Shown here piece by piece: positions 7,387-63,745 of a stretch of DNA of 64,000 nucleotides. Each line of letters begins with the position of its first letter. Position 1 is the stretch's first letter. A program made the translations under genes and the position numbers. Origin of the DNA: Acidobacteriota bacterium (GTDB taxonomy: Bacteria > Acidobacteriota > Blastocatellia > Pyrinomonadales > Pyrinomonadaceae); contig CP065003.1 of the NCBI GenBank assembly GCA_016700175.1, forward strand, positions 1,805,238 to 1,869,237. Reading direction: 5' to 3'. The notes beneath the pieces were generated by a model, which saw only the letters and a list, made by a program, of their open reading frames with translations, was not told the origin of the DNA and made no database searches.

Positions 7387-7459
7387 GCTGTGAGCTGTGA
7401 GCTGTGAGCTGTGAGCTGTGAGCTGTGAGCTGTGAGCTGTGAGCTGTGAGCTGTGAGCG
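7383..7459 (+). repeat. heptamer tandem array (GTGAGCT) x10 plus 1 variant
   Basis: Counted unit by unit. The stop codon of the S55 peptidase gene (7384-7386) is inside unit 1. Confidence 0.97.
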
Positions 7460-8121: not shown

Positions 8122-8129
8122 GTCGGACC

Positions 8130-8220
8130 GCGGGCGTCCCCGCCCGCATTCCTCCGCGCATCCGCGCGGCGCAAACTGGAGTTCACGGTACCTCGAGGTA
8201 CGATAGGCTTCAGCCTGTCG
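8130..8220. repeat. mosaic of hairpin modules C, B (minus orientation) and D
   Basis: GCGGGCG-TCCC-CGCCCGC (8130-8147), module B reverse copy (8154-8194), CGATAGGC-TTCA-GCCTGTCG (8201-8220). Confidence 0.9.
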
Positions 8221-9649: not shown

Positions 9650-9684
9650 GAGGTAGCCCTCCCTCACGGTCGGGCTTCCGACAC
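9650..9684. repeat. dispersed word GTAGCCCTCCCTCACGGTCGGGCTTC(C)GACAC
   Basis: Near-identical copy at 23336-23372. A related stretch occurs at 27455-27490. Confidence 0.85.
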
Positions 9685-9761
9685 CACTCACTGCTCACCG
9701 CTCACGGCTCACTGCCCACTGCTCACTGCTCACTGCCCACTGCTCACTGCTCACCGCTTAC
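9685..9761 (+). repeat. heptamer tandem array (TGCTCAC/TGCCCAC family) x11
   Basis: Counted unit by unit. Overlaps the last 5 codons and the stop of the acyl-CoA ligase gene. Confidence 0.95.
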
Positions 9762-11576: not shown

Positions 11577-11723
11577 TCTTGAATTTTGAACCTTCAACCT
11601 TGAACTTTGAACTTTGAACCTTGAACCTTGAACCTTGAACCTTGAACCTTGAACCTTGAACCTTGAACTTTGAACTTTGAACCTTGAACCTTGAACCTTG
11701 AACCTTGAACTTTGAACCTTGAA
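11577..11723 (+). repeat. heptamer tandem array (CYTTGAA) x21
   Basis: 147 nt equals exactly 21 units. It is the inverted partner of 11411-11438. The 74-aa tracked ORF here is just its translation. Confidence 0.97.
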
Positions 11724-19334: not shown

Positions 19335-22300
19335 CTACGTCCCGAATTTGGCGCGGATCTTCACCGCCCGTTCGAGCCCGTCGACGTTCTCCAGGATCTT
19401 CCTTTTCAGGTCGGCATCAAGCTTTGGATTCGCTTCCAAAAAACGGTTCACGATCTGCAAGGCCTCTTCGCTCTTCTGCCCGCCGATGAACGAGCCGAGC
19501 CAATTGTTCACGAAGAAGATCTTTCGGTTGCGTTTCAAAGCCGGCAGTTCGGCGAGCGCTTCGTCGAGATAAGGGAGCGTAAGTTCCGAATGCGAAGGCG
19601 AATTCCAGACGCCCGACGCCTCCTCGATCCAGCTTTCGGAGATCTCCTTGTTCTCGGTGAAATCCTTCCAGTACTTCGCCTTGTTCTCTTTAGTCGCGAA
19701 TCCCGCCTTCGCGGCGTATGCCCAACGGAGCGCCGCGTCGTCCTTCTCGGTCTTTTCGAGCTCGGCGAGGAACTTCGCCCCGTCCGGATCGCCGGCGACT
19801 ATCAGGCGCGTGGCGATGTCGAAGCGGTCTTTCGGGCGGACAGGAAAGGGAGTACTGAGAGATGAGTACTGAGTACTGAGATTGCCCCCTGAATTGAGGT
19901 TCAGGTTTGAGTCTGTGGGCCCCTTCTCAGTCCTCAGTACTCTCTTCTCAGTACTCGAACCGCCTTCGGCTTTTGCTGGGCTACCATCCGTCGCTCCTCC
20001 GGAGCGAAGATCGACACCCGTCTCCGGTCTTCGGTCTCCCGTCTCCTGACTTCTGACTTCTGACTCCTCTGCCCCGTCTCCCGTCTCCGGTCTTCGGTCT
20101 CCCGTCTCCGGTCTTCGGTCTCCCGTCTCCTGACTTCTGACTTCTGACTCCTCTGCCCCGTCTCCCGTCTCCGGTCTCCCGTCTCCCTTGCGGAACAGTT
20201 CCTTCAGCGCCGCCCTCGCCCTTTCTCCTTTCGCAACGCCCAGCAAGGCTCGGAAATACGTGATCCTCTGCCCTACGGTCGGCGCGCCGTAGATCTTGTC
20301 GACAAGCAGCGCCTCGAGCTTCTGCGTGACCTCGTCCTGCTGTTTTTCCGAAAGGTAATACGTATAGGCGTACGCCACCCGGCCGAGGATCGACGAGATC
20401 GTCGTCTCGTCCTTCTCGATGTCGATATTCGCGATCGCGAGGTTTATGTAATCGAGCGGCGCGAGCTCGGCGAACCGGACCGAATCCCAGAGGCTGCCCC
20501 ACATCTGCGCGCGGAAAAACTCGTCCTTCTCGTCTCGTATGTTCTTGAGGATGTAGTTCCGGCTCTTTTCATCGAGCAGGAAAATCCCATAGCCGTAATC
20601 GCGGTAATTGGGGAATATCAGAATGGTCTTGCGCTCGTTTAACTTCGGTGGCTCAGACGAGTAATCGTCCTTTTTCTTGGCTTCGCTCTCATCGTCAAGA
20701 GGAAAGAGAAACTCCCTGCGTCTTGTGATCGAGTTGGATTCAAGGTCAGGCAACCTCGCATACGCTCTGTACCCAATTGGAATTCTTTCGATTCTCGTTT
20801 CACCATTCTCAAATACTCTGAGAACTTGAATATCCTGAAGCCAGTTGTAGTTAGCTTCGGGCAATATCGGCTCTTGAAGCATGTAGTCATTGAGAACAGT
20901 ATGTCCTCCATGGGCTCCGCATGAACGAGTAAATCCTGGGAGATCAGCAATGGGATTCGGGTCGCTCATCAAACAGTCTGACGGGCGATAAACGGCGGTT
21001 CCGGGCTTCGAAACCCAGTACCATGCCCACTCACTTCTCACGTGCCACTTGGTGAAATCAATCAGCGCTTGCTTGTCGGAATCACTTAGCTTCTTGAAGA
21101 ATTCTCGCTCAGACTCCTTTCTCACCCGAATGTAGGCGATTTCGTCCACTAGATCATGCCAGGTTGCGTTTCCGAATTCATGGCTATTCAGAAATTGACG
21201 TACAGCCTCCCTGAAAATCTCCTCGCCCCAAAAGAACTCAGCTTGCTTTAAGAACGATGGGGCCTTCTGATACACGATATTTCCGTAAGCAGATTTTGCC
21301 GCGCTCAAGTTCGGGAGTTCTTGATGGATTGGAGTAGTCCCACTTGTAACGTCTGTTTGGTAAGCGGCGCTCTTAGTCCGCTGATAGAAGACCTTCCAGG
21401 GATCGTATTCGGGAAGGACCTTCTCCATCGTCTTGTACGCCATGAACGTGGCGAATCCTTCCTTCAGCCAAAGGTCGTCGAACCACTTCATCGTGACCGT
21501 GTCGCCGAACCACTGGTGGGCCGCCTCGTGAAAGATGACCGACGCGCGCGAGATGTAGTTGTTCGCGGTCGGTTCGGTCGGGAAAATGACGGACGTCTCG
21601 CGGAGGAACGTCGCGCCTGCGTGCTCCATTCCGCCGAAAGGAAATTCGGGGATCAAGACGACATAGTACTTCGGAAACGGGAAAGGGTAGTCGAAATAGT
21701 CCTCGAGATACTCGATCGCCTCGCGGTTGAGGCGGAATACCTCTTCGACCGGAGCGACTGGAGCGCGGGCGCTTGGACCGCGGGCGTCCTCGCCCGCATC
21801 TGTGTTCCCGACTGGAGCGCGGGCGGCCTCGCCCGCATCCGCCGCCTGTGGCGGCAAGAGTTTATGCGCCTGTGATTTCCGGACGAAGATACGAATCGGA
21901 ACGCGGTCGGAGGGCCCGTCGCTACCGCTCCGGGTACTGAGTGGCTCCTGAATCACCTCAAACGGTCCCGCCGCGAACGCGAAAACGTAAGTACTGATCG
22001 GCTTAGTTTCTTCAAAGCCGACGTACCGACGCTCTGCTAGTTTCTTACGGTATTCTTCGGCTTCGCTTCTTACGGAGGGTCCGATGCCGGGCCGCGTACG
22101 TGAAGTATCGATACCTCCATTGCTAATCGCGACCCAGTCCTTCGGAATATCCATCGACAACAGGAAGCGCGCTTTCAAATCCGGTTGATCAAAGACCGGG
22201 AAGGCCGTCGAAGCATCCGAGGGAACGAATAGCGAGTAGATATACTCTGAGCCATCCTCCGTGTCTTTGTATCTCGTCACCGCGGCTCCCGACGTCAGGA

Positions 22301-22927: not shown

Positions 22928-23072
22928 CCCTCTCTGTGTTCTTCGTGAAATCCTCTGTGCGCTCTGTGGTGAATTCTTCTCTGACAAAATGCACGCGCCC
23001 GCCATCCTGGAAAACAAAAAAGACACTCCCGTAAGGAAACGTCTCGGTCAGATCGGGTTGTATCGGGTCAGG
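22928..23072 (+). repeat. 145-bp direct repeat, copy 1
   Basis: Aligns by eye with 23141-23284 (offset 213 nt). Contains CTCTGTG words and a minus-strand terminator. Confidence 0.9.
23009..23044 (-). terminator. intrinsic terminator (minus strand), copy 1
   Basis: The minus-strand RNA reads AGACGUUUCC-UUAC-GGGAGUGUCU (10 bp including G.U pairs) followed by UUUUUUGUUUUCC. It lies inside a 145-bp direct repeat. Confidence 0.6.
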
Positions 23073-23140
23073 AATCAGGTGTCAGGTGTCAACGGTCAGG
23101 TATCAAGCGCCGGAGCGTCAAACTATGTACACAAAGCATC

Positions 23141-23284
23141 GCCCTCTGTGATCTCTGTGAAAACCTCTGTGTGCTCTGTGGTTAACTCTTCTTTGACAAA
23201 ATACAAGCGCCCGACATCCGGGAAAACAAAAAAGACGCTCCCGTAAGGAAACGTCTCGGTCAGATCGGGTTGGATCGGGTCAGG
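23141..23284 (+). repeat. 145-bp direct repeat, copy 2
   Basis: See 22928-23072. Confidence 0.9.
23220..23255 (-). terminator. intrinsic terminator (minus strand), copy 2
   Basis: The minus-strand RNA reads AGACGUUUCC-UUAC-GGGAGCGUCU followed by UUUUUUGUUUUC. On the plus strand the same stem would have C.A mismatches. Confidence 0.65.
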
Positions 23285-23359
23285 GAGCAATGGTCAGGTA
23301 TCGAGGATCACGTATCAGCGGCTCGAGGCTCTCAGTACTCGCGGTAGCCCTCCCTCACG

Positions 23360-23598
23360 GTCGGGCTTCGGACACGGGCTCAATCGACCTCTCCTCTTCT
23401 CATGTGCTGCGCAAGCGCTGCTCTAAACGGGCGCGAGTCGGGCTTCGGACACGGGCTCAATCGACCTCTCCTCTTCTCATGTGCTGCGCAAGCGCTGCTC
23501 TAAACGGGCGCGAGTCGGGCTTCGGACACGGGCTCAATCGTCCTCTCGCTTCCCTCATGTGCAGCGCAAGCGCCGCTCTAAACGGGCGCGAGTCGGGT
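23360..23598 (+). repeat. 77-bp tandem repeat x3.1
   Basis: The GTCGGGC anchor recurs at 23360, 23437, 23514 and 23592. Each unit holds a module-A hairpin (GCTGCGCAAGCGCTGC) plus CTCTAAAC. Confidence 0.93.
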
Positions 23599-27112: not shown

Positions 27113-27155
27113 GAGGTAACGCGAACTTCAGTTTGCGCCGCGCGAATGCGCGGAC
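27113..27155 (+). repeat. hairpin module B copy (loop GAAT)
   Basis: GAGGTAACGCGAACTTCAGTTTGCGCCGCGC-GAAT-GCGCGG. Confidence 0.93.
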
Positions 27156-37061: not shown

Positions 37062-37124
37062 GTTCAAGGTTCCAGGTTCAAGGTTCAAGATTCGCGGTTC
37101 AAAATTCCAGGTTCAAAGTTCAAA
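37062..37124 (+). repeat. heptamer tandem array (GTTCAAG family) x9
   Basis: Starts 4 nt after the gpmI stop codon. Same word as 11411-11438. Confidence 0.93.
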
Positions 37125-37155
37125 GAGAGGCCGTATGCGTGCGTATCGCCTATTC

Positions 37156-37303
37156 GCTCAAAGCTCGTCCCGATCCGTTCGAGGCTCGTCTGAGTCCGTT
37201 CGACCTCGTCTCGATCCGTTCGAGGCTCGTCTCGATCCGTTCGAAATTCGTCTCAGTCCGTTCGAAGCTCGTCTCGATCCGTTTAGAGCAGCGCTTGCGC
37301 TGC
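37156..37303 (+). repeat. 21-bp tandem repeat x6 ending in a module-A hairpin
   Basis: The GTTCGA anchor recurs at 37177, 37198, 37218, 37239 and 37260. At 37281 the unit becomes GTTTAGAGCAGCGCTTGCGCTGC. Confidence 0.92.
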
Positions 37304-37341
37304 AATAGTCGTGCGTAGCACGGCTCGATCCAAACAGCACG

Positions 37342-37700: not shown

Positions 37701-37965
37701 CGCGTTCTTCTTTGCGGTCCTTTGCGGCTTGGAGCCTTTGCGGAATCTCTTCGTTCTCAAAGAAGAGACAGGATGAACAGGATAATTTAGGATGGGTCGC
37801 TCCGCGTTCTTCTTTGCGGTCCTTTGCGGCTTGGCGGCTTCGCGGGATCTATTCTTTCTCAAAGAAGAGACAGGATGAACAGGATAGTTTAGGATGGGCC
37901 CCTCCGGGTTCTTCTTTGCGGTCCGTTGCGGCTTGCCGCCTTCGCGGGAGATCTTCTGTTGGTGA
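37701..37965 (+). repeat. 102-bp tandem repeat x2.6
   Basis: The CGCGTTCTTC anchor recurs at 37701 and 37803, and as CGGGTTCTTC at 37905. Each unit combines CTTTGCG words with ACAGGAT words. Confidence 0.93.
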
Positions 37966-42110: not shown

Positions 42111-43133
42111 ATGTTGAGATCACTTGTCATAGCTTCTTTCTTCTCGATTTTCTGGATAACACCGTTGAAGTCGTATTCGCCGCGGTTCGTTTCATCCGAG
42201 ACGTGTTCGCGCTCCGCGCTCAATGCAGCGCAAAGCGCTGCTCCAAACGGGCGCTGTCTGACGCGCGGGGTTCCGCTTTCGCCTGGGCTCCTTCTTTCCG
42301 GCGAAAAGCCGGACTTCCTGAAGATCGTCAGCGCAAAGCTGGAGAAACAGCACGGGATCGGCCTTTTCGAGGCGTGTTCTGTCAACGACGACCTCGGTGC
42401 CGAGACGGTGTTCAGGGAGTACGGCGCAGTGTTTGTCGCGGAGGGTGTGACCGTACCTTCAAAGTGCATCTTTGCCACCGAAGCGGAGGTCACGGCGTTT
42501 CAGTCGAAACTGGAAACAAGCACGCGATCGGTCGGCGGGACAACGATCACGCTCCAGAGACCGGCGATGGACGCTTTGATCGCGGCGAGAGAAGCGGCCC
42601 GCAAATCAGGGCTTTCGATCACGCCCCGCGGAGGCCCGAACGCCGCCTCGAGGAGTTTCGCGACGACACTGCGGTTCTGGAACTCGAGATTATATCCCGG
42701 CCTCGAGCACTGGAAACGGCAGGGCAGGATCACGGCGAAAGACGTCGCCGACATCCGCAAAGCCACTATTCCCGAACAGGTAGATAAGGTGCTCAGGTGG
42801 GAGCAGGAAGGTATATACTTCGCGCGAGGATTTTCGAAATCGATACTCTATTCCGTCGCGGCGCCCGGCGCGTCGCAGCACATCTCGATGCTTGCCCTGG
42901 ATGTGACCCAGTTCGGCAACGGGCGTGTCAGGGAGATCCTTGCGAAGCACGGCTGGCACAGAACGGTTCTCAGTGACCTGCCGCATTTTACCTATCTCGG
43001 CGTGCCGGAAAACGACCTGCCGAGACTCGGGCTGGAGAAGAAAACGTCGGGAGGCGAGGTTTTCTGGGTACCGGATCTCAGGACTGAGAAAGAAGGACTG
43101 AGGACTGAGAACGGCACGGGCGAGGTACGATAG
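42111..43133 (+). CDS. M15-family (VanY/D-Ala-D-Ala carboxypeptidase-like) peptidase
   Basis: SQHISMLALDV (SxHxxxxAxD) and DLPHFTYLG metal-ligand motifs. Start is uncertain. The last ~17 codons and the stop lie in repeat sequence. Confidence 0.65.
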   Translation: MLRSLVIASFFSIFWITPLKSYSPRFVSSETCSRSALNAAQSAAPNGRCLTRGVPLSPGLLLSGEKPDFLKIVSAKLEKQHGIGLFEACSVNDDLGAETVFREYGAVFVAEGVTVPSKCIFATEAEVTAFQSKLETSTRSVGGTTITLQRPAMDALIAAREAARKSGLSITPRGGPNAASRSFATTLRFWNSRLYPGLEHWKRQGRITAKDVADIRKATIPEQVDKVLRWEQEGIYFARGFSKSILYSVAAPGASQHISMLALDVTQFGNGRVREILAKHGWHRTVLSDLPHFTYLGVPENDLPRLGLEKKTSGGEVFWVPDLRTEKEGLRTENGTGEVR

Positions 43134-43189
43134 GCTTCAGCCTGTCGAAGTCCGCGCTTTCGCGCGGCGCAAGCTGAGGTCCGCGCGAC
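43128..43189. repeat. hairpin module D plus module B (minus orientation)
   Basis: CGATAGGC-TTCA-GCCTGTCG (43128-43147) contains the M15 gene stop codon. Diverged module B at 43152-43189. Confidence 0.88.
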
Positions 43190-43223
43190 AGATGTCAGGC
43201 GAGTTTCTCCGAAACAGTAACCT

Positions 43224-44374: not shown

Positions 44375-44417
44375 GAGGTAACGCGAACTTCAGTTTGCGC
44401 CGCGCGAAAGCGCGGAA
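44375..44417 (+). repeat. hairpin module B copy (loop GAAA)
   Basis: GAGGTAACGCGAACTTCAGTTTGCGCCGCGC-GAAA-GCGCGG, 24 nt after the SMP-30-like stop. Confidence 0.93.
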
Positions 44418-44444
44418 CCACGTTGGCCGCTCGGGCCGCTGCGT

Positions 44445-44563
44445 GAGGACTGAGGACTGAGGACTGAGGACTGAGGACTGAGGACTGAGGACTGAGGACT
44501 GAGGACTGAGGACTGAGGACTGAGGACTGAGGACTGAGGACTGAGGACTGAGGACTGAGGGAA
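44445..44563 (+). repeat. heptamer tandem array (GAGGACT) x16 plus 1 variant
   Basis: 112 nt of perfect units were counted. The 97-aa tracked minus-strand ORF is its translation. Confidence 0.97.
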
Positions 44564-44665: not shown

Positions 44666-44674
44666 TTCTTATTG

Positions 44675-47623
44675 ATGCCCCTGAACCCCGGAGACACGTT
44701 AGGCAGATACACGATCGACTCGCAATTGGGAGCCGGCGGAATGGGTGAGGTATTCCTTGCCAGCGATCCGACCCTCGGGCGCAAGGTCGCGATCAAGATC
44801 CTCGGGAGCGACGTCTCCGATAACCCTGACAGTCTCGCCAGGTTCGTTCGCGAGGCGAAATCGGCATCGGCCCTCAACCACCCCAACATCCTTACAATTT
44901 ACGAAACCACCGAAGCCGGCGGCACGCAGTACATCGTCAGCGAGTACGTCGAAGGCCGTACGCTGAAGTCCAGATTGAAAGACGGAAGGCTGCCGCTGAC
45001 CCTCGCGCTGGAGATAGCAGTCCAGACCGCTTCCGCCCTCGCGGCGGCGCACGAGGCCGGGATAGTTCATCGCGACATCAAACCGGCTAACATAATGGTG
45101 CGCGAGGACGGGATCGTGAAGGTCGTCGATTTCGGCATCGCGAAACTTGTAGGGACCGGATTCGATCGGGAATCGAAGGGAGAAGCGCCCACGATCTCGA
45201 AGATAGGAACCGCGCCGGGAATGCTTATCGGGACTCCGAAATACATGTCTCCCGAGCAGGCTCGCGGCAAACCGGTCGATCACAGATCCGACATCTTCAG
45301 CTTCGGCCTCGTCCTGTTCGAGATGTTCGCCGGGCGGCCGGCATTCGAGGGCGAGAGCCCGATGGACGTGGTGAGCGCGATCCTGAAAGACCCCGTCCCG
45401 ACTCCGGGCGAGATCGTATCCGGGCTTCCGGAAGGCATCGACCGAATCGTGGATAAGTGCCTCAGGAAAGAAGTGAAGGAGCGCTATCAGAACGCGCGGG
45501 ATCTTCTGATCGATCTGACCGACATACGGGACGAGCTTCGTTTCAAGGAAAAGAGAATGCTCGGCGACGAGACCGTCGCGGCCAAAGTCGTCCACGTCAC
45601 GGAAAGCGATCCGGCGGCGGAGACCGGAAGTCTGACCGCAAACATCGTAAGGCGGCGCAGGTTCACTGTTCTGCACGTGATCGGACTGTTGATCCTGCTC
45701 CTGATCCCTGTCGGCGCGTACATCTGGTACGAGTCGAGCAGCCACGATGCCGCTTCGATCGCCGACAACACCGTCACGACAGAGCTGGCAAGCTGGAGCA
45801 GCGCTCCGGGCGAGCTGTTTAGCGTCGCAAGGTTCTCGCCGGACGGAAAACTGATCGCCTTCTCGTCCACGCGCTCGGGAAACAAGGACATTTGGGTGAT
45901 GCAGTCGAACTCGACCGAGGCAATCCAAATAACGAAGGACGAGTTCGCCAACACGGACCCGATTTGGTCGCCCGACGGATCGGAGATCGCCTATTTTTCC
46001 GACCGGGGAACGGGGGGCGAAAGCGAGGAGACAAGGACCGGCGTCTGGAGGATCTCGGCGCTCGGCGGTTCGCCGAGATCTGTCGGGCCGATCAAGGATG
46101 GAAGCAGCGAACTCCGCAGATGGACCACCGGGGGAAAGATCGTTTATCAGTCCGGCGGCGAGCTTTACGCAATGGATCCAGACAGCGGAGCCGCGGAAAA
46201 ACTGACAAGTTTCGGATCCGGAAGCGGCACTGTCTCCTGGGCCGACGTATCGGACGATCAGCAGCGAGTTTCGTTCGTCGTCAAGACCGGCGACAAGAAC
46301 TGGAAGCTGATGACGCGCGTCCTCTCGAATTCAGAGGCGGAAGAGGTGTATTCGGCCGACACCGATCTTTCGGACGTCGTATGGCTGCCCGCAACGGACG
46401 AATACTACTTCAGCGCGGACCGCGAAGGGACCGAACAGGTATTTTACCTGGCTACGGGCTCGTCGGAGCCGGTTCAGATCACCCGGAATCCCGCAAGCAG
46501 CGTCGTGGTCGATGCGTCCCCGGACGGCGGAAGCATTCTCTTTACGTCGGTCAGGGAAGAATCCGACGTCTGGAGCGTGGGAACCGCGACCTCCGAGGAA
46601 TCGCCGGTCGGGCGCGGTATCGATTCGGAGCTTTGGCCGGCCGTCAGCCCGGACGGTTCGCAGATCGTGTTCCAGTCAGTCCGCAATCTTGACCGCGGAA
46701 ACAGACTCCTTTCCTCGTCGCTTATGGTCAGGCCTCTGGGATCGTCGGCATCGGGGATCGAGCCCGTCGAGATCGCTGAAGGTGCCGCGCTGCCGCAATG
46801 GTCCCCCGATGGTTCGAAGATAGCGTTCTTCCGCGTCGGTGCTGACGGGAATTCGATCTGGGTCGTGAACGCCAGCGGCGGCGAAGAAAGGAAGGTCGCC
46901 GACAATGCCCAGTCGGTCTCCTATTCAGTTTCGCCGTACAACAGGGTCCACACAAAGGACATCGTGTGGCTGCCGGATTCGTCGGGCATTTTCTATTCCC
47001 ACAAGGAACCGTCGGCAACCTCGATCAGGATCGCGCGGCTTAACGGCGGCGCTCCAGGCCCGGTGTCGCCTCCGGTAAACGGCGAATCGCAGTACTGTCC
47101 GGTCATTTCAACCGAAGGGAACAGGCTCGCATTCTTTTCGCAGAGGAACGAGGGCGGCAAGGTCGTGCGGGCGATCTGGGCGACGGATTCGGACCTGAAA
47201 GATCCAAGGAAGATCTTCGAGACCGAACGGCTGATAAGACTGATCGGATGGGACAAAGGCGGCGAGAGCCTTGTCCTCGCGGAGGCGTCCAAGTTCAGCA
47301 GTCTTCCGGACGAAACCACGCTCCTCCGGCTCGGCCTTTCGGGAGGCGATCCGGAGCCGTTCGCGCGTTTGCAAAACGCCTATTACTACAATATCTTCCT
47401 TTCACCGGACAAAAAGACGATCGCTTTCGCGGCCCGCAAGGAGAACAGGGACGATATCTGGCTTGTTTCCGTAAGCGGGGGCGAGTCACGCAAGATTACC
47501 GGCAATAACGATTCGGAGTCCTACTTCTCCGCACTTTCGTGGGCGCCGGACAGCAGCGCCATATACTTTGGGAAACAAACGCGGTTTAGTTTGCTCTCCA
47601 AGATCACCGGCCTAAAGGAATAA
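44675..47623 (+). CDS. Ser/Thr protein kinase with TM helix and PD40/TolB-like beta-propeller sensor
   Basis: G-loop GAGGMG at aa 19-24, HRDIKPAN, DFG, SPEQ. C-terminal repeats of SPDG..IAF.S.R....DIW type. Confidence 0.9.
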   Translation: MPLNPGDTLGRYTIDSQLGAGGMGEVFLASDPTLGRKVAIKILGSDVSDNPDSLARFVREAKSASALNHPNILTIYETTEAGGTQYIVSEYVEGRTLKSRLKDGRLPLTLALEIAVQTASALAAAHEAGIVHRDIKPANIMVREDGIVKVVDFGIAKLVGTGFDRESKGEAPTISKIGTAPGMLIGTPKYMSPEQARGKPVDHRSDIFSFGLVLFEMFAGRPAFEGESPMDVVSAILKDPVPTPGEIVSGLPEGIDRIVDKCLRKEVKERYQNARDLLIDLTDIRDELRFKEKRMLGDETVAAKVVHVTESDPAAETGSLTANIVRRRRFTVLHVIGLLILLLIPVGAYIWYESSSHDAASIADNTVTTELASWSSAPGELFSVARFSPDGKLIAFSSTRSGNKDIWVMQSNSTEAIQITKDEFANTDPIWSPDGSEIAYFSDRGTGGESEETRTGVWRISALGGSPRSVGPIKDGSSELRRWTTGGKIVYQSGGELYAMDPDSGAAEKLTSFGSGSGTVSWADVSDDQQRVSFVVKTGDKNWKLMTRVLSNSEAEEVYSADTDLSDVVWLPATDEYYFSADREGTEQVFYLATGSSEPVQITRNPASSVVVDASPDGGSILFTSVREESDVWSVGTATSEESPVGRGIDSELWPAVSPDGSQIVFQSVRNLDRGNRLLSSSLMVRPLGSSASGIEPVEIAEGAALPQWSPDGSKIAFFRVGADGNSIWVVNASGGEERKVADNAQSVSYSVSPYNRVHTKDIVWLPDSSGIFYSHKEPSATSIRIARLNGGAPGPVSPPVNGESQYCPVISTEGNRLAFFSQRNEGGKVVRAIWATDSDLKDPRKIFETERLIRLIGWDKGGESLVLAEASKFSSLPDETTLLRLGLSGGDPEPFARLQNAYYYNIFLSPDKKTIAFAARKENRDDIWLVSVSGGESRKITGNNDSESYFSALSWAPDSSAIYFGKQTRFSLLSKITGLKE

Positions 47624-48132: not shown

Positions 48133-48175
48133 GAGGTAACGCGAACTTCAGTTTGCGCCGCGCGTAAGCGCGGAA
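48133..48175 (+). repeat. hairpin module B copy (loop GTAA)
   Basis: Starts 2 nt after the stop of the BON-like gene. Confidence 0.93.
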
Positions 48176-48202
48176 TCGCGGCGGCAGTTCGGGCCGCGGC
48201 CA

Positions 48203-48258
48203 GAGGACTGAGGACTGAGGACCGAGGACTGAGGACTGAGGACCGAGGACTGAGGACT
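48203..48258 (+). repeat. heptamer tandem array (GAGGACT/GAGGACC) x8
   Basis: Counted unit by unit. Confidence 0.95.
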
Positions 48259-48280
48259 GAAAGAAATTCATTTCCAAATT

Positions 48281-48437: not shown

Positions 48438-50924
48438 ATGGCGCTTGACCCCAACACCACCGTCTCCCACTACAAGATCCTCTCCCCGATAGGAAAGGGC
48501 GGGATGGGAGAGGTATATCTCGCGCAGGATACGAAGCTGAATCGCAAGGTCGCGATCAAGTTCCTTTCGGATGAGTTCAGCCGCGATTCCGACAAACTTA
48601 ACAGGTTCATCCAGGAGGCGCAGGCGGCATCGGCGCTCAATCACCCGAACATAGTCACTGTCTTTGAGATCGGCGAGGCCGATGATTCCCGGTTCATTGC
48701 GCTCGAGCACATCGAAGGCGAGACCCTTACGAAGTTTCTCAAGAAAAAACTGAAGTTCGAGTCCGCCCTCGATATCGCCATACAACTCGCGTCGGCACTC
48801 GATGCGGCCCACTCCGCCGGCATCGTTCACAGGGACATCAAGCCCGACAACGTGATGATCAGGAAGGACGGGATCGTGAAGATCCTCGACTTCGGGATTG
48901 CGAAATTGTCAGGCCCGGGAACGGATGCGGCCGGTTCAGTCGATAATGAAGGCGAGACCGCCGTTCAGGTGAACACCTCGCCGGGGATGATCATCGGGAC
49001 CGCGAACTATATGTCACCCGAGCAGGCAAAGGGAAAGGGGATCGATTCCCGGACAGACATATTCAGTTTCGGTGTGGTTCTTTACGAGATGATCGCCGGT
49101 CACCTTCCCTTCCCGGGCGACAGCCCTCTGGAGATCATCGGTTCCATTCTCAACAAAGAACCAAGACCTATCGAAAACCCGGATGTACCTCCGGAACTGG
49201 AGAGGATCGTCTCAAAGAGCCTTCGGAAAGACCCGGATGAAAGATATCAGACGATGAAAGGCCTTGCCGCAGACCTGAAAGATTTCAAGCGGCAGATGGA
49301 CTTTCAGAATCAGCTTGATAAGACGGTTCAGCCTGAACGCGGAGAATCAGAGACTCAGGTCTTCCAGGCTACAACCGCGGCCGATGGGCAGCAAACAACG
49401 GCGGGTACCACGAACGACAGCATTTCGATCAAGCGTTCGAGCCTGGGTAAGATCTTGGGCGCAGTGGCGGTTTTGCTCGTTCTCATCTCTCTCGGGATCG
49501 GATATTGGTACTTCACCCAAGGCGAATCCGGCCAGATAAATTCGATCGCGGTAATGCCTTTTCAGAACGACAGCGCTACAGCCGATTCCGAATATCTCTC
49601 GGATGGTCTGGTCGAGACGCTTATCTATCGGCTATCTCAGATCGAAGAATTGAAGGTCAGCCCCTCAAGCTCGGTGTTTCGATACAAAGGCAAGCAGTCC
49701 GATTCGGTCAGTGCCGGTAAGGAACTTGGCGTTGAGGCCGTAATGACGGGAAAGATCGCTCAGAGAGGCGATGACCTGATCATAAGCGTCGAGCTTGTCG
49801 ATGTTCGCAACAGCAAGACGCTTTGGGGCGAGCGGTACAACCGGAAGATGGCTGATCTTCTTGCAACACAGCGGGAGATCACCAACACGATCATTCAGAA
49901 GCTGCAGCTGAAACTTGCGGGGGAAGACGAGGAGGACCTGCGCAAGGAATACACTTCGAATTCCGAAGCATACGAGCTGTATCTGAAAGGCCGTTTTCAC
50001 TACGAGAAACGGACAAAGGCCGATATCGAAAAGGGTATCGATTATTACGATCAGGCGCTTGCACTGGACAAGAGCTTTGCGCTTGCATATGTCGGTATCG
50101 CAAATGCTTACGGAGTAATGCCTTCGTACGGGTACATTGCTCCCAAGGAGGCGGGTCCAAAGGGAATGGCGGCCGCGCGAAAGGCATTGGAAATAGATCC
50201 GAACCTGGCGGACGCACACGCGGCAGTCGCATATGTCGCCGCCGCGCTCTTCTGGGATTGGGAAACAGCGGAACGCGAGTTCGGGATCGCGCTCGAGATG
50301 GATCCGAACAATGCTGCCACCCGTGTTCGATACGGATACAACTATCTTCTGCCAATGGCACGCACGAAAGAAGCGGTCGATGAGATCAAGCGCGCATTGG
50401 AGCTCGAGCCGCTGTCGATACCGATCGGATCGATGCTGGCAGATGCTTACCTGGAGGACGGGCAGTTCGACAAGGCGCTGGAGCAGATAACGAGGACCGA
50501 CAATCTGGAGCCGGGACATCCCACATCTGCATACTGGCTTATGAGCACTTACGCTGCTAAAGGAATGTGCGGCGAGGCCCTTAGACTTGCCGATAAGAGG
50601 CTGGAGAAAACACCGGACGATCAGGATACGTTGTCGATCTCCGGATACTGTTCCGCAAAAACAGGAAACAGGGGAAAGGCGGAAGCGGTAATCGCGAAGT
50701 TCAGAGAGCTTTCCAAGACCCGGTTCATCCTGAATTCCTACATTGCGCAGATCTACTATGCGCTTGATGAAAAGGACAAGGCATTCGCGGCGCTTGAAAA
50801 GGCCGTCGAGGAGCGAGATTTCTTCATCCCCACAATGAGAACCAATCCTATGTTTGCGGGCCTGCGCCGGGAGCCTCGATTCGGCGAGCTCATGAAACGC
50901 ACGGGTTTGCCGGATCTCGACTGA
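48438..50924 (+). CDS. Ser/Thr protein kinase with TM helix and TPR domain
   Basis: G-loop GKGGMG at aa 19-24, HRDIKPDN, DFG, SPEQ. TM helix and C-terminal TPR repeats. Confidence 0.9.
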   Translation: MALDPNTTVSHYKILSPIGKGGMGEVYLAQDTKLNRKVAIKFLSDEFSRDSDKLNRFIQEAQAASALNHPNIVTVFEIGEADDSRFIALEHIEGETLTKFLKKKLKFESALDIAIQLASALDAAHSAGIVHRDIKPDNVMIRKDGIVKILDFGIAKLSGPGTDAAGSVDNEGETAVQVNTSPGMIIGTANYMSPEQAKGKGIDSRTDIFSFGVVLYEMIAGHLPFPGDSPLEIIGSILNKEPRPIENPDVPPELERIVSKSLRKDPDERYQTMKGLAADLKDFKRQMDFQNQLDKTVQPERGESETQVFQATTAADGQQTTAGTTNDSISIKRSSLGKILGAVAVLLVLISLGIGYWYFTQGESGQINSIAVMPFQNDSATADSEYLSDGLVETLIYRLSQIEELKVSPSSSVFRYKGKQSDSVSAGKELGVEAVMTGKIAQRGDDLIISVELVDVRNSKTLWGERYNRKMADLLATQREITNTIIQKLQLKLAGEDEEDLRKEYTSNSEAYELYLKGRFHYEKRTKADIEKGIDYYDQALALDKSFALAYVGIANAYGVMPSYGYIAPKEAGPKGMAAARKALEIDPNLADAHAAVAYVAAALFWDWETAEREFGIALEMDPNNAATRVRYGYNYLLPMARTKEAVDEIKRALELEPLSIPIGSMLADAYLEDGQFDKALEQITRTDNLEPGHPTSAYWLMSTYAAKGMCGEALRLADKRLEKTPDDQDTLSISGYCSAKTGNRGKAEAVIAKFRELSKTRFILNSYIAQIYYALDEKDKAFAALEKAVEERDFFIPTMRTNPMFAGLRREPRFGELMKRTGLPDLD

Positions 50925-50943
50925 GACGTCGGAATTGAAACCC

Positions 50944-51195
50944 GTTTAGAGCAGCGCTTCGCGCTGCCGAGGTAACGCGAAATTCAGTTTGCGCCGCGCG
51001 CAAGCGCGGAACGTGCGGGCGAGGACGCCCGCGGTCTAAGGCGACAAGCTGAAGCTTGTCGTACATCTGTTTCGAACAGCGCTTCGCGCTGCGGAAGTAA
51101 CGCGAACTTCAGTTTGCGCCGCGCGTAAGCGCGGGACCACATCGGCACTTCGGGCCGCGGGCGGCCCGCGACAAGCTGAAGCTTATCGTACAACC
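50944..51195. repeat. tandem duplication of a four-module hairpin mosaic (A-B-C-D) x2
   Basis: First set: A 50944-50968, B 50969-51011 (loop GCAA), C 51015-51032, D 51042-51061. Second set: A' 51068-51092, B' 51094-51136 (loop GTAA), C' 51151-51168, D' 51169-51188. Confidence 0.92.
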
Positions 51196-51260
51196 GTTTT
51201 AGAGCTTCGGCCTTCCCGACGGCCTGCCGAAACCTGATCCGTGATCCTTGAGACCCGATC

Positions 51261-52118
51261 TCATTTCTCATTCCGTTCTTCGAGATAAGGCAGCGGATCG
51301 ACGGTGCAGTAGTCCGGAGAGCTTTCCACGAGATGCTTGAGGATGGGGATATGACCCTGGCCGTAGATCACGAAGACGCGGTCGCCGGGCTCGGAAATTC
51401 GGGTGAGGTTGGCGAAGATCCTCAGATTCCTTTGATACCAGACCGATACAAAATCGGCGCCTGCGTAGTTGTCGCCGTCCGCCATCGGTGCGAAGTAACC
51501 GATGTACGGTGTATGTGTGAGCTTCAGCATTTCCGGACGGTTCATCTGGTAGAGCATGTATGAAACTGTTCCTTCGGAAAGCCACTTTCCCATCTGTTCC
51601 ATCGCCCGGCCGCCTAACTTCTCCATATCGGCCATTTTCTTCTGAAACTCCGGCTTTGCGCCTATGACCGGACCAAGCGTTTTGTCGTCAAGAGGCATGT
51701 GCACGTCGATCGGGAAGACCTCCTGGTGGCCCATCTGCTTCGCCAGCCGGAAACCTATCTGCTCCTCCTCGCTCGGGCGCAATTCACGTGTACCTTTCAA
51801 ATAGGACTGCCAGCGGTCGGAGGCCGACTTGCCCGCCCAGGGATCTTCGATCGCGACCTTCGTAGGCTTGAACCCCGCAAGCCGGTCGACCAAGGCCTTG
51901 ATCTCCTTCTGCCGTTTCTCCGCGAGAACGTCATCGGCTTTCAGGTTGAACCGGTCGAGTCCGGGATTCGCCATGTGGTAGCTTCCGACCATAAGCACGG
52001 CGATCCGGTCGTCATCCTCCTGACAGGCGTCCGGCGGAACGTTCAGATCCAGCTGGGCGACCCCCGAGCCCGCAAGCAAAAGCAAAGCCAGAGCGGCGAT
52101 TGAAAATGTTCTGATCAT
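51261..52118 (-). CDS. hypothetical secreted protein (possibly DUF5694/TraB-like)
   Basis: 285-aa ORF with a signal peptide. The VLMVGSYHMANPGLD block is reminiscent of that family, but the function is not established. Confidence 0.6.
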   Translation of the reverse strand: MIRTFSIAALALLLLAGSGVAQLDLNVPPDACQEDDDRIAVLMVGSYHMANPGLDRFNLKADDVLAEKRQKEIKALVDRLAGFKPTKVAIEDPWAGKSASDRWQSYLKGTRELRPSEEEQIGFRLAKQMGHQEVFPIDVHMPLDDKTLGPVIGAKPEFQKKMADMEKLGGRAMEQMGKWLSEGTVSYMLYQMNRPEMLKLTHTPYIGYFAPMADGDNYAGADFVSVWYQRNLRIFANLTRISEPGDRVFVIYGQGHIPILKHLVESSPDYCTVDPLPYLEERNEK

Positions 52119-63473: not shown

Positions 63474-63745
63474 TTCAGAAGTCTGAAGTCAGGAGTCAGG
63501 ACAAAAGGAAGAAAGAGAAACAGGATGGACAGGAAGTTAGAGAAACAGGATGGACAGGATGTCGAGGATTCTGCTCCACTATCGACCGCCGCTGGGCTCT
63601 TTCATTCCGGCCTTTGAAATATGCCGAATAGCATTCAGGTTATCGTGTTTATCCTGTCTATCCTGTTTCTCTTCCCCTGACTCCGGACTCCTGACTCCTG
63701 ACTTCTGACTTCTGACTTCTGACTTCTGACTTCTGACTTCTGAAG
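63474..63745. repeat. nested composite palindrome
   Basis: Outer TCAGAAG-type units x4 (63474-63501) face (YCTGACT) x10 (63676-63745). Inner AAACAGGATGGACAGGA x2 faces TTTATCCTGTCTATCCTGTTTC. Confidence 0.92.

Follow-up and report, generated by a model that had tools for sequence, protein, structure and literature searches.

BIME-like clusters of REP-like hairpin modules in Aridibacter and RAYT genes bounded by the same modules

A tandem array of two ~125-nt units of hairpin modules lies between convergent genes at 50942-51194 of the window, by which we mean the whole 64,000-nt stretch of DNA that was analysed. The region is most probably a BIME-like REP cluster specific to Aridibacter, in which module A is the REP of one transposase lineage (RAYT-1), modules B1 and D are two inverted types of a second REP belonging to another lineage (RAYT-3), the hairpins B2, C, C', X and Y are linkers occupying a defined slot, and the modules are mobilised by RAYTs. 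Because RAYTs of related genomes are bounded by these same modules, we place the repeats in the known REP/BIME class rather than in a new kind of element.

Architecture of the tandem array

The array and its flanking genes comprise the following features (window coordinates, strand in brackets).

48438..50924 (+): upstream neighbour, a Ser/Thr protein kinase gene with TPR repeats
50942..50967 (+): module A, unit 1; CCGTTTAGA then the hairpin GCAGCGC-TTC-GCGCTGC; a REP putatively cognate to the RAYT-1 lineage
50969..50993 (+): module B1, unit 1; GAGGTAA then the hairpin CGCGAAA-TTCA-GTTTGCG
50994..51009 (+): module B2, unit 1; hairpin CCGCGC-GCAA-GCGCGG, a module that B1 nearly always precedes
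51015..51037 (+): module C, unit 1; hairpin GCGGGCG-AGGA-CGCCCGC with a GGTCT tail
51042..51067 (+): module D, unit 1; CGACAAGC-TGAA-GCTTGTCG then TACATC; a B1-type REP when reverse-complemented
51067..51092 (+): module A, unit 2; degenerate head CTGTTTCGA and hairpin ACAGCGC-TTC-GCGCTGC
51094..51134 (+): modules B1 and B2, unit 2; GGAAGTAACGCGAAC-TTCA-GTTTGCG, next CCGCGC-GTAA-GCGCGG
51150..51168 (+): module C', unit 2; TCGGGCCGCGGGCGGCCCG (= GGGCCGCGGGCGGCCC), a hairpin distinct from C
51169..51194 (+): module D, unit 2; CGACAAGC-TGAA-GCTTATCG then TACAAC
51194..51231 (+): degenerate third A head (CCGTTTTAGAGC, 51194-51205) after unit 2, completed by an unrelated hairpin
51261..52118 (-): downstream neighbour, the convergent gene for a DUF5694 protein

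Repeat search and direct alignment both showed the two units to be 90% identical across 69 nt (50944-51012 and 51069-51137, spacing 125) and 91% identical across 32 nt (51041-51072 and 51168-51199, spacing 127), in agreement with a previous sequence-only reading that had proposed a tandem duplication with a period of about 125 nt between convergent genes. The 125-nt period was not reported by TRF, probably because the middle of the units is divergent. That reading had described the order A-B-C-D twice; there are indeed two units, but the second carries C' (51150-51168) and not C. The A, B, C and D hairpins that it distinguished do recur, with the correction that B is two hairpins, B1 (GAGGTAACGCGAAC-TTCA-GTTTGCG) and B2 (CCGCGC-NNNN-GCGCGG). 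C' is the usual filler of the B2-to-D slot in 125-nt units and recurs elsewhere as a separate module. The unrelated hairpin that follows the third A head closes the array ahead of the DUF5694 gene and has a weak match to an unrelated Rfam family. Within the most probable reading, the two-unit array is the product of duplication of one A-B-C/C'-D unit, at an age such that the copies have diverged by about 10%.

Hairpin structure, covariation and strand asymmetry

Modules A, B1 and D are imperfect palindromes of 25-26 nt with stems of 7-8 bp, matching REPs in size (20-40 nt) and stem-loop form. Several features indicate that the hairpins are under selection. The predicted folds of the region are more stable than those of shuffles (z = -3.4 to -3.9). 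The stems show compensatory change: the A stem occurs as GCAGCGC/GCGCTGC in 48 copies and as GCAGCCC/GGGCTGC in 19, with pair 6 being G-C in 73 copies and C-G in 27, and pair 6 of D covaries likewise (G-C in 65 copies, A-T in 28). Pair 4 of B1 is G·T in 119 of 120 copies (173 G·T against 1 A·C when B1 copies are pooled), and D, read on its other strand, has G·T at pair 4 in 88 of 94 copies, D of unit 2 included, D of unit 1 having C-G. This near-invariance implies folding of one specific strand. B1 of unit 1 also retains the G·T; its loop-adjacent pair 7 is A·G, as opposed to C-G in the consensus and in unit 2, owing to an A at position 50982, which is C in metagenome contigs. The loops of B2 vary (GAAT, GAAC, GAAA, GCAA and others) and are mostly GAAT or GAAC, ruling out a GNRA tetraloop as an RNA signal.

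The other strand of D (GAGGTA-CGATAGGC-TTCA-GCCTGTCG) and B1 (GAGGTA[C/A]-CGTGAAC-TTCA-GTTTGCG) represent one hairpin type, the two having in common the flank, the stem length, the position of the G·T and the TTCA loop, and they alternate in inverted orientation in B-D, B-X-D and A-B-C'-D units. Each unit therefore holds two inverted REP-like types with linker hairpins between them, and B1 and D mirror the inverted y/z REP pairs of Escherichia coli BIMEs; together with the tandem unit, this upholds the BIME-like architecture claimed from the sequence alone. No module has at the hairpin foot the GTAG or CGTC tetranucleotide that is typical of described REPs; in that position A carries GTTTAGA and B1 and D carry GAGGTA[C/A]. 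The modules do not match REPIN doublets (the same REP inverted, forming one long hairpin); B1 and D are complementary over a 7-nt flank only, and of 61 pairs of adjacent A copies a minority, 12, are inverted (A-A'). A. famidurans has in addition a GTAGGG-tagged REP family, served by a RAYT of its own, that lies outside this array.

RAYT genes beside the modules

The window contains no RAYT gene in its 64,000 nt, as had been stated, but Y1 transposases of REP-associated type are bounded by modules in related genomes, and the search for a mobilising gene elsewhere, which the sequence-only reading had proposed, yielded two lineages next to modules. RAYT-1 (locus L027) has the HUH motif DHVH and the Tyr motif YIHMNPV, scores 43 bits against Pfam Y1_Tnp (cut-off 23) and 101.1 bits against NCBIfam REP_Tyr_transpos NF047646 (cut-off 80), and has E. 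coli TnpA-REP (4ER8) as its best match among solved structures, the two aligning at the HUH and YxxxNP motifs. Its flanks in L027 are mirror-symmetric (A-B-Y-A...A-cap and cap-A'-Y'-B'-A'-Y'-B'-A'), and orthologues of 88%, 72% and 71% identity are all bounded by inverted A plus a cap hairpin. Inverted A modules bound RAYT-1 in five loci from four genomes (L027, L147, L149/L067 and L068), as inverted repeats of ~45 nt that each consist of two hairpins (A plus cap). These flanks make A the putative cognate REP of the RAYT-1 lineage. Three RAYT-1 paralogues (QQS40291, QQS39918 and QQS42721; mutual identity 91-92%) lie on one 4,490,879-bp contig, apparently the window's own genome, which departs from the pattern of a single RAYT for each REP type in a genome, RAYTs being single-copy as a rule (PMC5581495).

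RAYT-3 (P0053, 242 aa; HUH motif NHVH, Tyr motif YTIRNPVKAGL) scores 29.5 bits against Pfam Y1_Tnp (cut-off 23) and 61.7 against NCBIfam RAYT, under the cut-off of 80. With hhalign, its homology to RAYT-1 plus E. coli RayT has 99% probability; solved structures gave no match at E<=1. The gene has a [B-D(-D)]x7 array on one side and a D-D-B-D-B-D-D-B-D-D-D-D array on the other (L021+L058), and its homologues at 60% and 47% identity (in L151 and L150) have D or a D variant at their flanks, the D copies beside RAYT-3 being in direct rather than inverted orientation. From this placement, B1 and D are putative cognate REPs of the RAYT-3 lineage. No RAYT-3 orthologue from the 4.49-Mb contig was present among the 120 best of 242 matches (E<=1e-10), and B1 and D may be orphans in the window's genome. 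A gene between inverted B copies in L059, considered as a further RAYT candidate, is an unrelated lipoprotein-like ORF. The association of RAYTs with modules is one of position.

Distribution and genomic location of the modules

A scan of public genomes showed the modules to be almost confined to Aridibacter, a soil and sludge genus of the Acidobacteriota. They are not restricted to the window, a possibility that the sequence-only reading had raised, as a B 21-mer had matches at 65 further loci, nearly all from two Aridibacter MAGs. Those loci plus the window (0.56 Mb of sampled sequence) hold 122 copies of B1, 121 of B2, 118 of A, 94 of D and 47 of C, while the reversed sequence gave 0-2 matches per module. 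Within the window, 3 matches to A, 6 to B and 4 to C compare with 0.08, 0.01 and 0.01 expected from shuffles, respectively, and D has 6 strand matches at 4 sites against 0.00 expected, two local near-palindromic copies matching the other strand too. Metagenome contigs sharing 5-13% of the sampled words were used for copy-number and junction evidence; the contigs break at 50934, and module depth is ~40-100x that of the adjacent single-copy gene.

All further sites that had been listed in the window were found (8125-8220, 21775-21836, 23413-23585, 27113, 37279, 42225-42250, 43122-43168, 44375 and 48133), and are described as follows.

8125..8220 (-): D-B1-B2-C cluster in the array's cyclic order, A missing
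21775..21836 (-): two C modules, in frame within an M1 aminopeptidase ORF
23413..23585 (-): three A modules in a 77-nt tandem unit, each coupled to another repeat module (CCCTCCCTCACGGTCGGGCTTCGGACAC type)
27113..27154 (+): solitary B (B1+B2)
37279..37325 (+): solitary A then the cap hairpin (AGTCGTGC-GTA-GCACGGCT)
42160..42250 (-): A plus cap, ~84 nt
43122..43190 (-): degenerate B1, B2 and D
44375..44416 (+): B, then a C'-like hairpin, then (TGAGGAC)x17; kinase paralogue 1 lies downstream
48133..48174 (+): B, then a C'-like hairpin, then (GAGGACT)x8; kinase paralogue 2 lies downstream

The regions at the two kinase paralogues are 91% identical (48133-48260 and 44375-44502). In the one gene examined, the C pair in the M1 aminopeptidase forms a 37-aa insertion relative to the orthologue, lineage-specific and in a variable region. 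The A plus cap at 42160..42250 is missing from the orthologous site in A. famidurans (L049), a presence/absence polymorphism.

Most clusters are intergenic (122/134, 91%), with enrichment in convergent spaces (33/102 against a baseline of 47/285), depletion in divergent spaces (8/102 against 61/285) and a median distance of 105 nt to gene 3' ends compared with 177 nt to 5' ends. Such placement also favours a reading in which the hairpins are host 3'-UTR elements (terminators, attenuators or mRNA 3'-end stabilisers) that were spread by duplication and kept for an RNA role, the transposases being irrelevant. The array begins ~20 nt downstream of the kinase stop codon, its RNA fold has z = -3.9 and E. 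coli REPs have been credited with roles of this kind (PMC3733652). We nevertheless consider this reading unlikely. The modules have no U-tracts (T tracts in the DNA), and a terminator and promoter scan gave no signal beyond shuffles, with one weak terminator-like site against 0.8 expected; with respect to co-directional genes, clusters are oriented almost at random (36 vs 25); B1 and D have their G·T pairs on different strands, so that no single transcript could fold the two well; the B2 loops are inconsistently GNRA; and no Rfam family gave a match. The module-flanked RAYT genes of several genomes are also left unexplained. A 3'-UTR role is therefore rejected as the sole explanation; the hairpins may have a secondary role in the host.

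Module order, unit types and array dynamics

Neighbouring modules have like orientation in 371 of 390 pairs (95%), and 362 of these 371 (98%) fit a single cyclic sequence of optional, iterable slots (A > B1 > B2 > {C, C', X, Y or nothing} > D > A); these neighbour statistics are biased to B-containing clusters because loci were chosen by B match. The B1>B2 transition occurs 106 times, B2>C' 12 times and C'>D 10 times, and B2, C, C', X and Y are linker motifs at fixed positions in the B1-to-D slot. This regularity does not support the independent shuffling of modules into other orders and orientations that had been claimed. In the cluster given as C-B(rev)-D (8130-8220), the minus strand carries every one of the modules, in the order D-B-C, and that given as D-B(rev) at 43128-43189 reads B-D on the minus strand (43122-43190), with relative orientation and cyclic order unchanged.

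The modules are separable. Unit types and periods include B-C (74 nt), B-D (72 nt), B-X-D (102 nt), A-B-Y (about 90 nt) and A-B-C'-D (125 nt), and arrays of D, C, A or B1 only were also seen (C-only in L019). Other loci have up to 7 tandem units with periods of 62, 72, 74, 102 or 125 nt; the tandem amplification of a composite unit, two units in the case of the window array, is of the BIME-2 type. Orthologous intergenic sites retain a cluster while its contents vary: the solitary B at 27113..27154 corresponds to B-D in L004 and (B-D)x2 in L046, the D-B-C cluster at 8125..8220 to an expanded B-X-D-B-C-D-B-C array in L043, and the single D at 43122..43190 to five copies in L049.

The sequence-only reading had set against its mosaic a single element of fixed order, and the 98% adherence to one cyclic order agrees with that part of the idea, but many unit types and single-module arrays exist. 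The idea can be framed as A-B-C/C'-D being one ~125-nt non-autonomous MITE-like element that moves whole, with other combinations derived from it by decay or partial copying. In favour of this, A-B-(C or C')-D occurs as a dispersed unit, with 11 occurrences in 7 loci at non-orthologous sites, composite arrays of 2-3 units are found in L001, L036, L056 and the window, the unit seen here shares 85% identity with those of L001, and the cyclic order is almost invariant. We nevertheless consider a single element of this kind unlikely. Modules are well preserved in other regular arrays (B-C, B-D, B-X-D, A-B-Y and single-module D, C, A or B1); A alone bounds RAYT-1 in genomes showing no B or D, D alone adjoins RAYT-3 homologues, C alone is inserted into a CDS, and the 125-nt unit is without terminal inverted repeats or target-site duplications. 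That the region is a CRISPR-like array, a set of structured ncRNA genes or a group of GC-rich palindromes brought together by chance is highly improbable, although the hairpins are repeated at regular spacing and C weakly resembles a CRISPR repeat model (15 bits, cut-off 39). The whole window has no Rfam match at the gathering score (best local match in the region at E<=10, 15.6 bits against a 40-bit cut-off), tRNA and tmRNA genes were not found, repetition extends over the full period and leaves no unique spacers, module counts exceed shuffles >30-fold and hundreds of copies are dispersed across genomes.

Proposed mechanism and significance

For the preferred reading, a RAYT-mobilised REP cluster, we propose a mechanism by analogy with E. 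coli TnpA-REP. Each REP would fold in single-stranded DNA, and a RAYT (HUH/Y1) would recognise, on just one of the two strands, the folded hairpin, the flank 5' of it and the irregularity in its stem, and would cut and rejoin adjacent to the hairpin; repeated cutting and rejoining would in time seed copies at gene 3' ends. Clusters would stay in place, growing, shrinking and changing composition by duplication or deletion of whole modules or composite units, driven either by the RAYT or by slippage and recombination. The repeat families, their grammar, their bias to intergenic and 3'-end positions, the covariation and strand asymmetry of the hairpins and the placement of RAYTs beside modules are observed; mobilisation by RAYTs, and any role of the hairpins in host transcripts, is what we infer.

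The Aridibacter repeats are a further example of the REP/BIME-RAYT class, unusual in that REPs of two RAYT lineages appear to be joined within one unit. A more speculative suggestion, to which we attach limited confidence, is that the tandem units could be chimeras of REPs from two domesticated transposase lineages (A from RAYT-1, B1 and D from RAYT-3), welded by fixed linkers and amplified and dispersed as a unit. If true, two REP-RAYT systems would be engaged in cross-talk or hitch-hiking, of which we know of no description in the REP/BIME literature, and the units would offer a natural system for studying the assembly of BIME mosaics.

To our knowledge, REP/BIME-RAYT systems have been studied almost entirely in Proteobacteria. 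Aridibacter provides a dense and very regular case in another phylum. Its RAYT lineages, of which there are at least three, each have REPs of their own, the flanks are not GTAG, one conserved G·T is the stem irregularity and the slot grammar is strict. The case bears on how mosaics arise and why hosts retain the transposase. Arrays that differ between sister species at one site form a comparative series for array dynamics, and the modules provide testable substrates for RAYT specificity (A vs B1/D, top vs bottom strand, G·T vs G-C). The repeats also have practical consequences, as they break metagenome assemblies of the Aridibacter lineage at gene ends, and their in-frame insertion into proteins affects annotation.

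Comparison with known REP/BIME-RAYT systems

The closest parallels are with the E. coli REP/BIME and TnpA-REP (RayT) system and its BIME-2 y-z2 arrays, which likewise consist of short, imperfect, high-copy palindromes in extragenic positions with a 3'-end bias (PMC8266576, PMC6006769). E. coli BIMEs are y-z1 or y-z2 mosaics, and TnpA-REP binds the folded single-stranded REP strand-specifically, requires the 5' tag and stem irregularity, and cuts and rejoins beside the REP (PMC8266576, PMC6006769, PMC3733652). Both systems have two inverted REP types with conserved linkers between them in a composite amplified in tandem, a conserved stem irregularity and 5' flank that make the fold strand-specific, and a Y1/HUH transposase gene bounded by repeats (REPtron). 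The Aridibacter sequences are unrelated to E. coli REPs, with a 5' flank of GAGGTA or GTTTAGA instead of GTAG and a single G·T instead of an AA/GC bulge as the irregularity, and there are more slot types (A, B1, B2, C/C'/X/Y and D). While one E. coli enzyme handles y, z1 and z2, Aridibacter units appear to join REPs of two RAYT lineages, of which RAYT-1 is present in three paralogues.

As in the REPIN-RAYT systems of Pseudomonas, REP families co-occur with a cognate RAYT bounded by its own REPs (PMC3116915, PMC5581495). Several REP-RAYT pairs per genome and the persistence of clusters at orthologous sites, which suggests vertical inheritance, are further similarities. The mobile unit of Pseudomonas is, however, the REPIN, in which two copies of one REP pair into a long hairpin, whereas the likeness of B1 and D is limited to the 7-nt flank and the loop, and the Aridibacter arrays are long direct tandems. 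Rickettsia palindromic elements insert in frame into coding genes. Module C, in frame in the M1 aminopeptidase ORF, resembles these elements and intragenic REPs (PMC3733652, Additional file 3), although it belongs to a different sequence family.

The ~45-nt double-hairpin inverted repeats bounding RAYT-1 are similar to those of TIRYT/TIRtron elements (Di Nocera et al. 2013, PMC3733652). Repeat families have been derived from double-palindromic TIRs, and TIRYTs are known in Acidobacteria (Koribacter, Terriglobus, Granulicella and Acidobacterium), including an Acidobacteria-specific group, with Aridibacter (Blastocatellia) lying outside that survey (PMC3733652). TIRYT TIRs mostly carry a GGGGWSAS motif, which is missing in the Aridibacter repeats, and, unlike those TIRs, the outer hairpin A of Aridibacter is itself a high-copy, dispersed module integrated into BIME-like arrays.

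Structure of the tandem cluster

Direct-repeat alignment defined the tandem duplication by two blocks, one with 90% identity over 69 nt (50944–51012 versus 51069–51137, spacing 125) and one with 91% identity over 32 nt (51041–51072 versus 51168–51199, spacing 127); the segment separating them does not align between unit 1 and unit 2. The region reads as the sequence-only reading described it and lies between convergent genes, as stated there. That reading had the order A-B-C-D occurring twice: the duplication at ~125 nt stands, but unit 2 carries C' rather than C, and module B is a pair of hairpins, named B1 and B2.

Features of the cluster and its flanks
48438–50924, +, Ser/Thr kinase with TPR repeats, flanking gene
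unit 1, module C, hairpin GCGGGCG-AGGA-CGCCCGC
unit 2, module C', a different hairpin, GGGCCGCGGGCGGCCC
51261–52118, −, DUF5694 gene, the other flanking gene, convergent with the kinase

Matches in the window, against dinucleotide-shuffle expectations, numbered 3 for A (0.08 expected), 6 for B (0.01), 4 for C (0.01) and, for D, 6 strand matches at 4 sites (0.00). Every module of the cluster folded as a separate hairpin, the fold of the whole region was better than that of shuffled sequence (z −3.4 to −3.9), and the region was not accounted for by any Rfam family, any tRNA or a terminator pattern. The remaining module sites reported in the window were all confirmed, with the arrangement at 8130–8220, previously read as C-B(rev)-D, proving to be D-B-C on the minus strand, in the same order and orientation as in the cluster.

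Tandem heptamer repeats of many sequences are abundant in the intergenic DNA (GTGAGCT ×11, CTTGAAC ×21, TGAGGAC ×17 and others, at sites including 7383–7458, 9687–9758, 11578–11723, 20017–20187, 37062–37283, 44444–44560, 48203–48260 and 63676–63743), often directly adjoining REP-like modules, and are reminiscent of the heptameric STRR repeats known from cyanobacteria. Two C modules lie in frame (21775–21836, −) in an M1 aminopeptidase ORF (19335–22712) as a 37-aa insertion (PPQAADAGEAARAPVGNTDAGEDARGPSARAPVAPVE) that is absent from the orthologue at related-genome locus L061, which has a C module in another variable region; heptamer repeats, too, are read in frame as protein (aa 842–899). In front of each of the two tandem Ser/Thr kinase paralogues (44672–47623 and 48438–50924), whose order is swapped in Aridibacter famidurans (L049), stands a common block (44375–44560 and 48133–48260, 91% identity over 128 nt) made up of B, then a C'-like hairpin, then (GAGGACT)n. 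Other repeats occur at 22932–23317, 23360–23597, 37701–37949, 55524–55820/61701–61997 and 9655–9690; the window holds a 212-nt tandem (×1.8), a 102-nt tandem (×2.4), a 297-nt dispersed pair (89% identity) and a 77-nt tandem (×3) in which A is linked to a CCCTCCCTCACGGTCGGGCTTCGGACAC module; this module recurs at 9655–9690 and in L008.

Distribution and copy number

The modules are not confined to the window: a 21-mer spanning B, scanned against one genome per species, matched 65 loci, nearly all from two MAGs, A. famidurans (JAGFIQ01) and Aridibacter sp. (DATKCW01), while four single matches outside these were assumed to be chance and left out. Genes of the window are 77–92% identical to those of the two MAGs, so its source is another Aridibacter-like organism; its proteins are found on a contig of 4,490,879 bp in a MAG labelled 'Acidobacteriota bacterium'. 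Fuzzy matching across loci and window gave 122 copies of B1, 121 of B2, 118 of A, 94 of D, 47 of C and 14 of C', against 0–2 matches in reversed-sequence controls. Sludge and soil metagenome contigs provided an independent estimate, with kinase gene depths of 13.4, 6.7 and 4.5 in three runs and summed depths of 1091, 694 and 172 for an A+B1 stretch in the same runs. In runs X1 and X2 the short-read contig over the kinase ended at 50931–50934, on the cluster's first base; in the third run it already ended at 50623. The DUF5694 gene had no coverage at an identity of at least 85% in any of the four runs. Assemblies of this lineage are broken up by the repeats, and the right-hand neighbour of the cluster varies among strains.

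Module order and array dynamics

Arrays with many different periods demonstrate that the modules are separable and that the 125-nt unit is not the sole element.

Repeat units and their periods
A-B-C'-D, 125 nt
B-X-D, 102 nt
A-B-Y, ~90 nt
B-C, 74 nt
B-D, 72 nt
truncated B + C, 62 nt
D only, 31 nt
C only, 31 nt
B1 only, 27 nt

The proposal that modules are shuffled independently holds for their separability and many unit types but not for their arrangement: 371 of 390 neighbouring pairs share an orientation, and 362 of those 371 obey a single cyclic order, A > B1 > B2 > {C, C', X, Y or nothing} > D > A, in which slots are optional and iterable.

Comparison of orthologous intergenic sites between the window and the two Aridibacter MAGs revealed clusters retained with differing content (B versus B-D versus (B-D)×2; D-B-C versus B-X-D-B-C-D-B-C; one D versus five). 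An 84-nt A+cap element (the cap being the hairpin that accompanies A) upstream of a glycosyltransferase gene (42160–42245) is absent from the orthologous A. famidurans site (L049 5964–5981), and other junctions, B2-Y-A and B2-C-truncated B1 among them, are seen in metagenome contigs. Clusters are therefore long-lived residents that undergo expansion, contraction and module exchange in place. The alignment at 42160–42245 also suggests that the glycosyltransferase starts near 42128, not 42493.

Genomic context

Most clusters (122/134) are intergenic. Relative to all intergenic regions they occur more often between convergent genes (33/102 classified clusters versus 47/285) and less often between divergent ones (8/102 versus 61/285), with median distances of 105 nt to 3' ends and 177 nt to 5' ends. 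This intergenic, 3'-end-biased placement is the REP pattern. With respect to co-directional genes the clusters show a near-random orientation (36 versus 25), evidence against an RNA function that depends on orientation. The hairpins may have a host role in transcripts, but the data can be explained without one.

Hairpin structure and selection

Read on its other strand, D (GAGGTA-CGATAGGC-TTCA-GCCTGTCG) shares with B1 (GAGGTA[C/A]-CGTGAAC-TTCA-GTTTGCG) the 5' flank, the loop, a stem of almost equal length and, at position 4 of the stem, a non-Watson-Crick pair. This pair is G·T in 119/120 B1 copies and T·G in 88/94 D copies, and B1 totals are 173 G·T pairs versus one A·C. Pair 6 of D shows a compensatory G-C/A-T switch (65 versus 28 copies), and the A stem occurs as two fully compensatory variants, GCAGCGC/GCGCTGC (48 copies) and GCAGCCC/GGGCTGC (19). 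It follows that the hairpins are under selection, that each folds well on one strand only and that the foldable strands of B1 and D are opposite DNA strands. The B1/D arrangement has the same logic as the inverted y/z REP pairs of E. coli BIMEs. TnpA-REP binds the REP strand and not its complement, requiring both the 5' tag and the stem irregularity (PMC8266576).

Associated transposases

No Y1 transposase lies within the 64-kb window, in line with the earlier statement that it lacks a REP-associated tyrosine transposase (RAYT). A search for a mobilising gene elsewhere had been proposed, and the sampled loci of related genomes contain three Y1 transposases, two recovered when every ORF was searched by phmmer with the E. 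coli RayT query and a third by profile search.

RAYT genes in related genomes
RAYT-1, L027, 190 aa, motifs DHVH and YIHMNPV
RAYT-2, L065 3796–4269, A. famidurans, NCBIfam REP_Tyr_transpos 108.6 bits
RAYT-3, RAYT-like, in L021 7472–8000 plus L058 1–1319 (contiguous blocks of one contig, the gene crossing their junction), 242 aa, motifs NHVH and YTIRNPVKAGL

RAYT-1 passes Pfam Y1_Tnp, scores 101 bits against the NCBIfam REP-associated tyrosine transposase equivalog model (cut-off 80) and has E. coli TnpA-REP (4ER8) as its best solved-structure match. Its flanks in L027 are mirror-symmetric and built of the modules of the cluster (left, D'-A-B-Y-A-A-cap; right, cap-A'-Y'-B'-A'-Y'-B'-A'; primes denote the other strand). 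Inverted A+cap hairpins surround each orthologue: one from Aridibacter sp. at 88% identity and, from another acidobacterial MAG and from metagenome contigs, those at 72% and 71%; the cap varies by genome, and the two caps around any one gene match. Near the RAYT-1 gene of the more distant genomes only A was seen, with no B or D. The 90%-identity protein cluster of RAYT-1 contains three paralogues (91–92% identical), all on a contig of 4,490,879 bp, equal in length to the one with the window's proteins; the genome of the window thus almost certainly encodes RAYT-1. A truncated RAYT-1 remnant (~77 aa of the C-terminal part; L055 4461–4691 = L007 4329–4559, the same DATKCW010000011.1 region) still has A+cap hairpins at its borders and an A-A-A array ahead. 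A motif, TTCAGGATCGTTAAAGACAATT[C/A]ATC (L027 2060–2117, L147 3930–4000, L149 3880–3935), lies between the cap and the RAYT-1 start codon; it is conserved even in an orthologue with 72% identity and may have a promoter or regulatory function.

The joined RAYT-3 ORF equals protein record P0053 exactly, annotated only as 'hypothetical protein'. RAYT-3 passes Pfam Y1_Tnp, has the same RAYT model as its best NCBIfam match, below cut-off (61.7 versus 80), and is aligned by hhalign to a profile of RAYT-1 and E. coli RayT with a probability of 99%. It lies inside the largest B/D arrays seen ([B-D(-D)]×7 upstream; D-D-B-D-B-D-D-B-D-D-D-D downstream). A 60% homologue has D on either side together with B1-like copies, a 47% homologue (Aridibacter sp.) a D variant on either side, and a 46% homologue (another Blastocatellia MAG) different repeats. 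Among the best 120 of 242 matches, no RAYT-3 orthologue came from the 4.49-Mb contig.

RAYT-2 is flanked, in inverted orientation, by a classical GTAG-tagged REP, GTAGGG-GCGGGG-CTTGT-CCCCGC (L065 3008 (+), 3685 (+) and 4835 (−)), a separate A. famidurans family with ~14 copies in the loci and no copy within the window.

Comparison with known systems

The tandem cluster is BIME-like and built from REPs specific to Aridibacter. RAYT-1 has A as its associated REP, the REP associated with RAYT-3 comes in two inverted types, B1 and D, and the linkers are B2, C, C', X and Y. Given the positional associations between RAYTs and modules, work on E. coli and Stenotrophomonas (PMC8266576) and the REPtron concept (PMC6006769), the RAYTs would mobilise the modules via strand-specific recognition of folded single-stranded DNA. 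Searches of open-access texts turned up no earlier account of the Aridibacter repeats. The system shows most of the defining features of REP/REPtron and BIME, but its modules lack the GTAG or CGTC tag (PMC3733652) and are not REPINs in the strict sense, and RAYT-1 is not single-copy, as RAYTs typically are (PMC5581495). The inverted repeats around RAYT-1, each made of two hairpins, are similar to the TIRtrons and double-palindromic TIRs described by Di Nocera et al.; their study also noted a TIRYT group specific to Acidobacteria (PMC3733652). The combination of REPs of two RAYT lineages in single tandem units may be a new feature.
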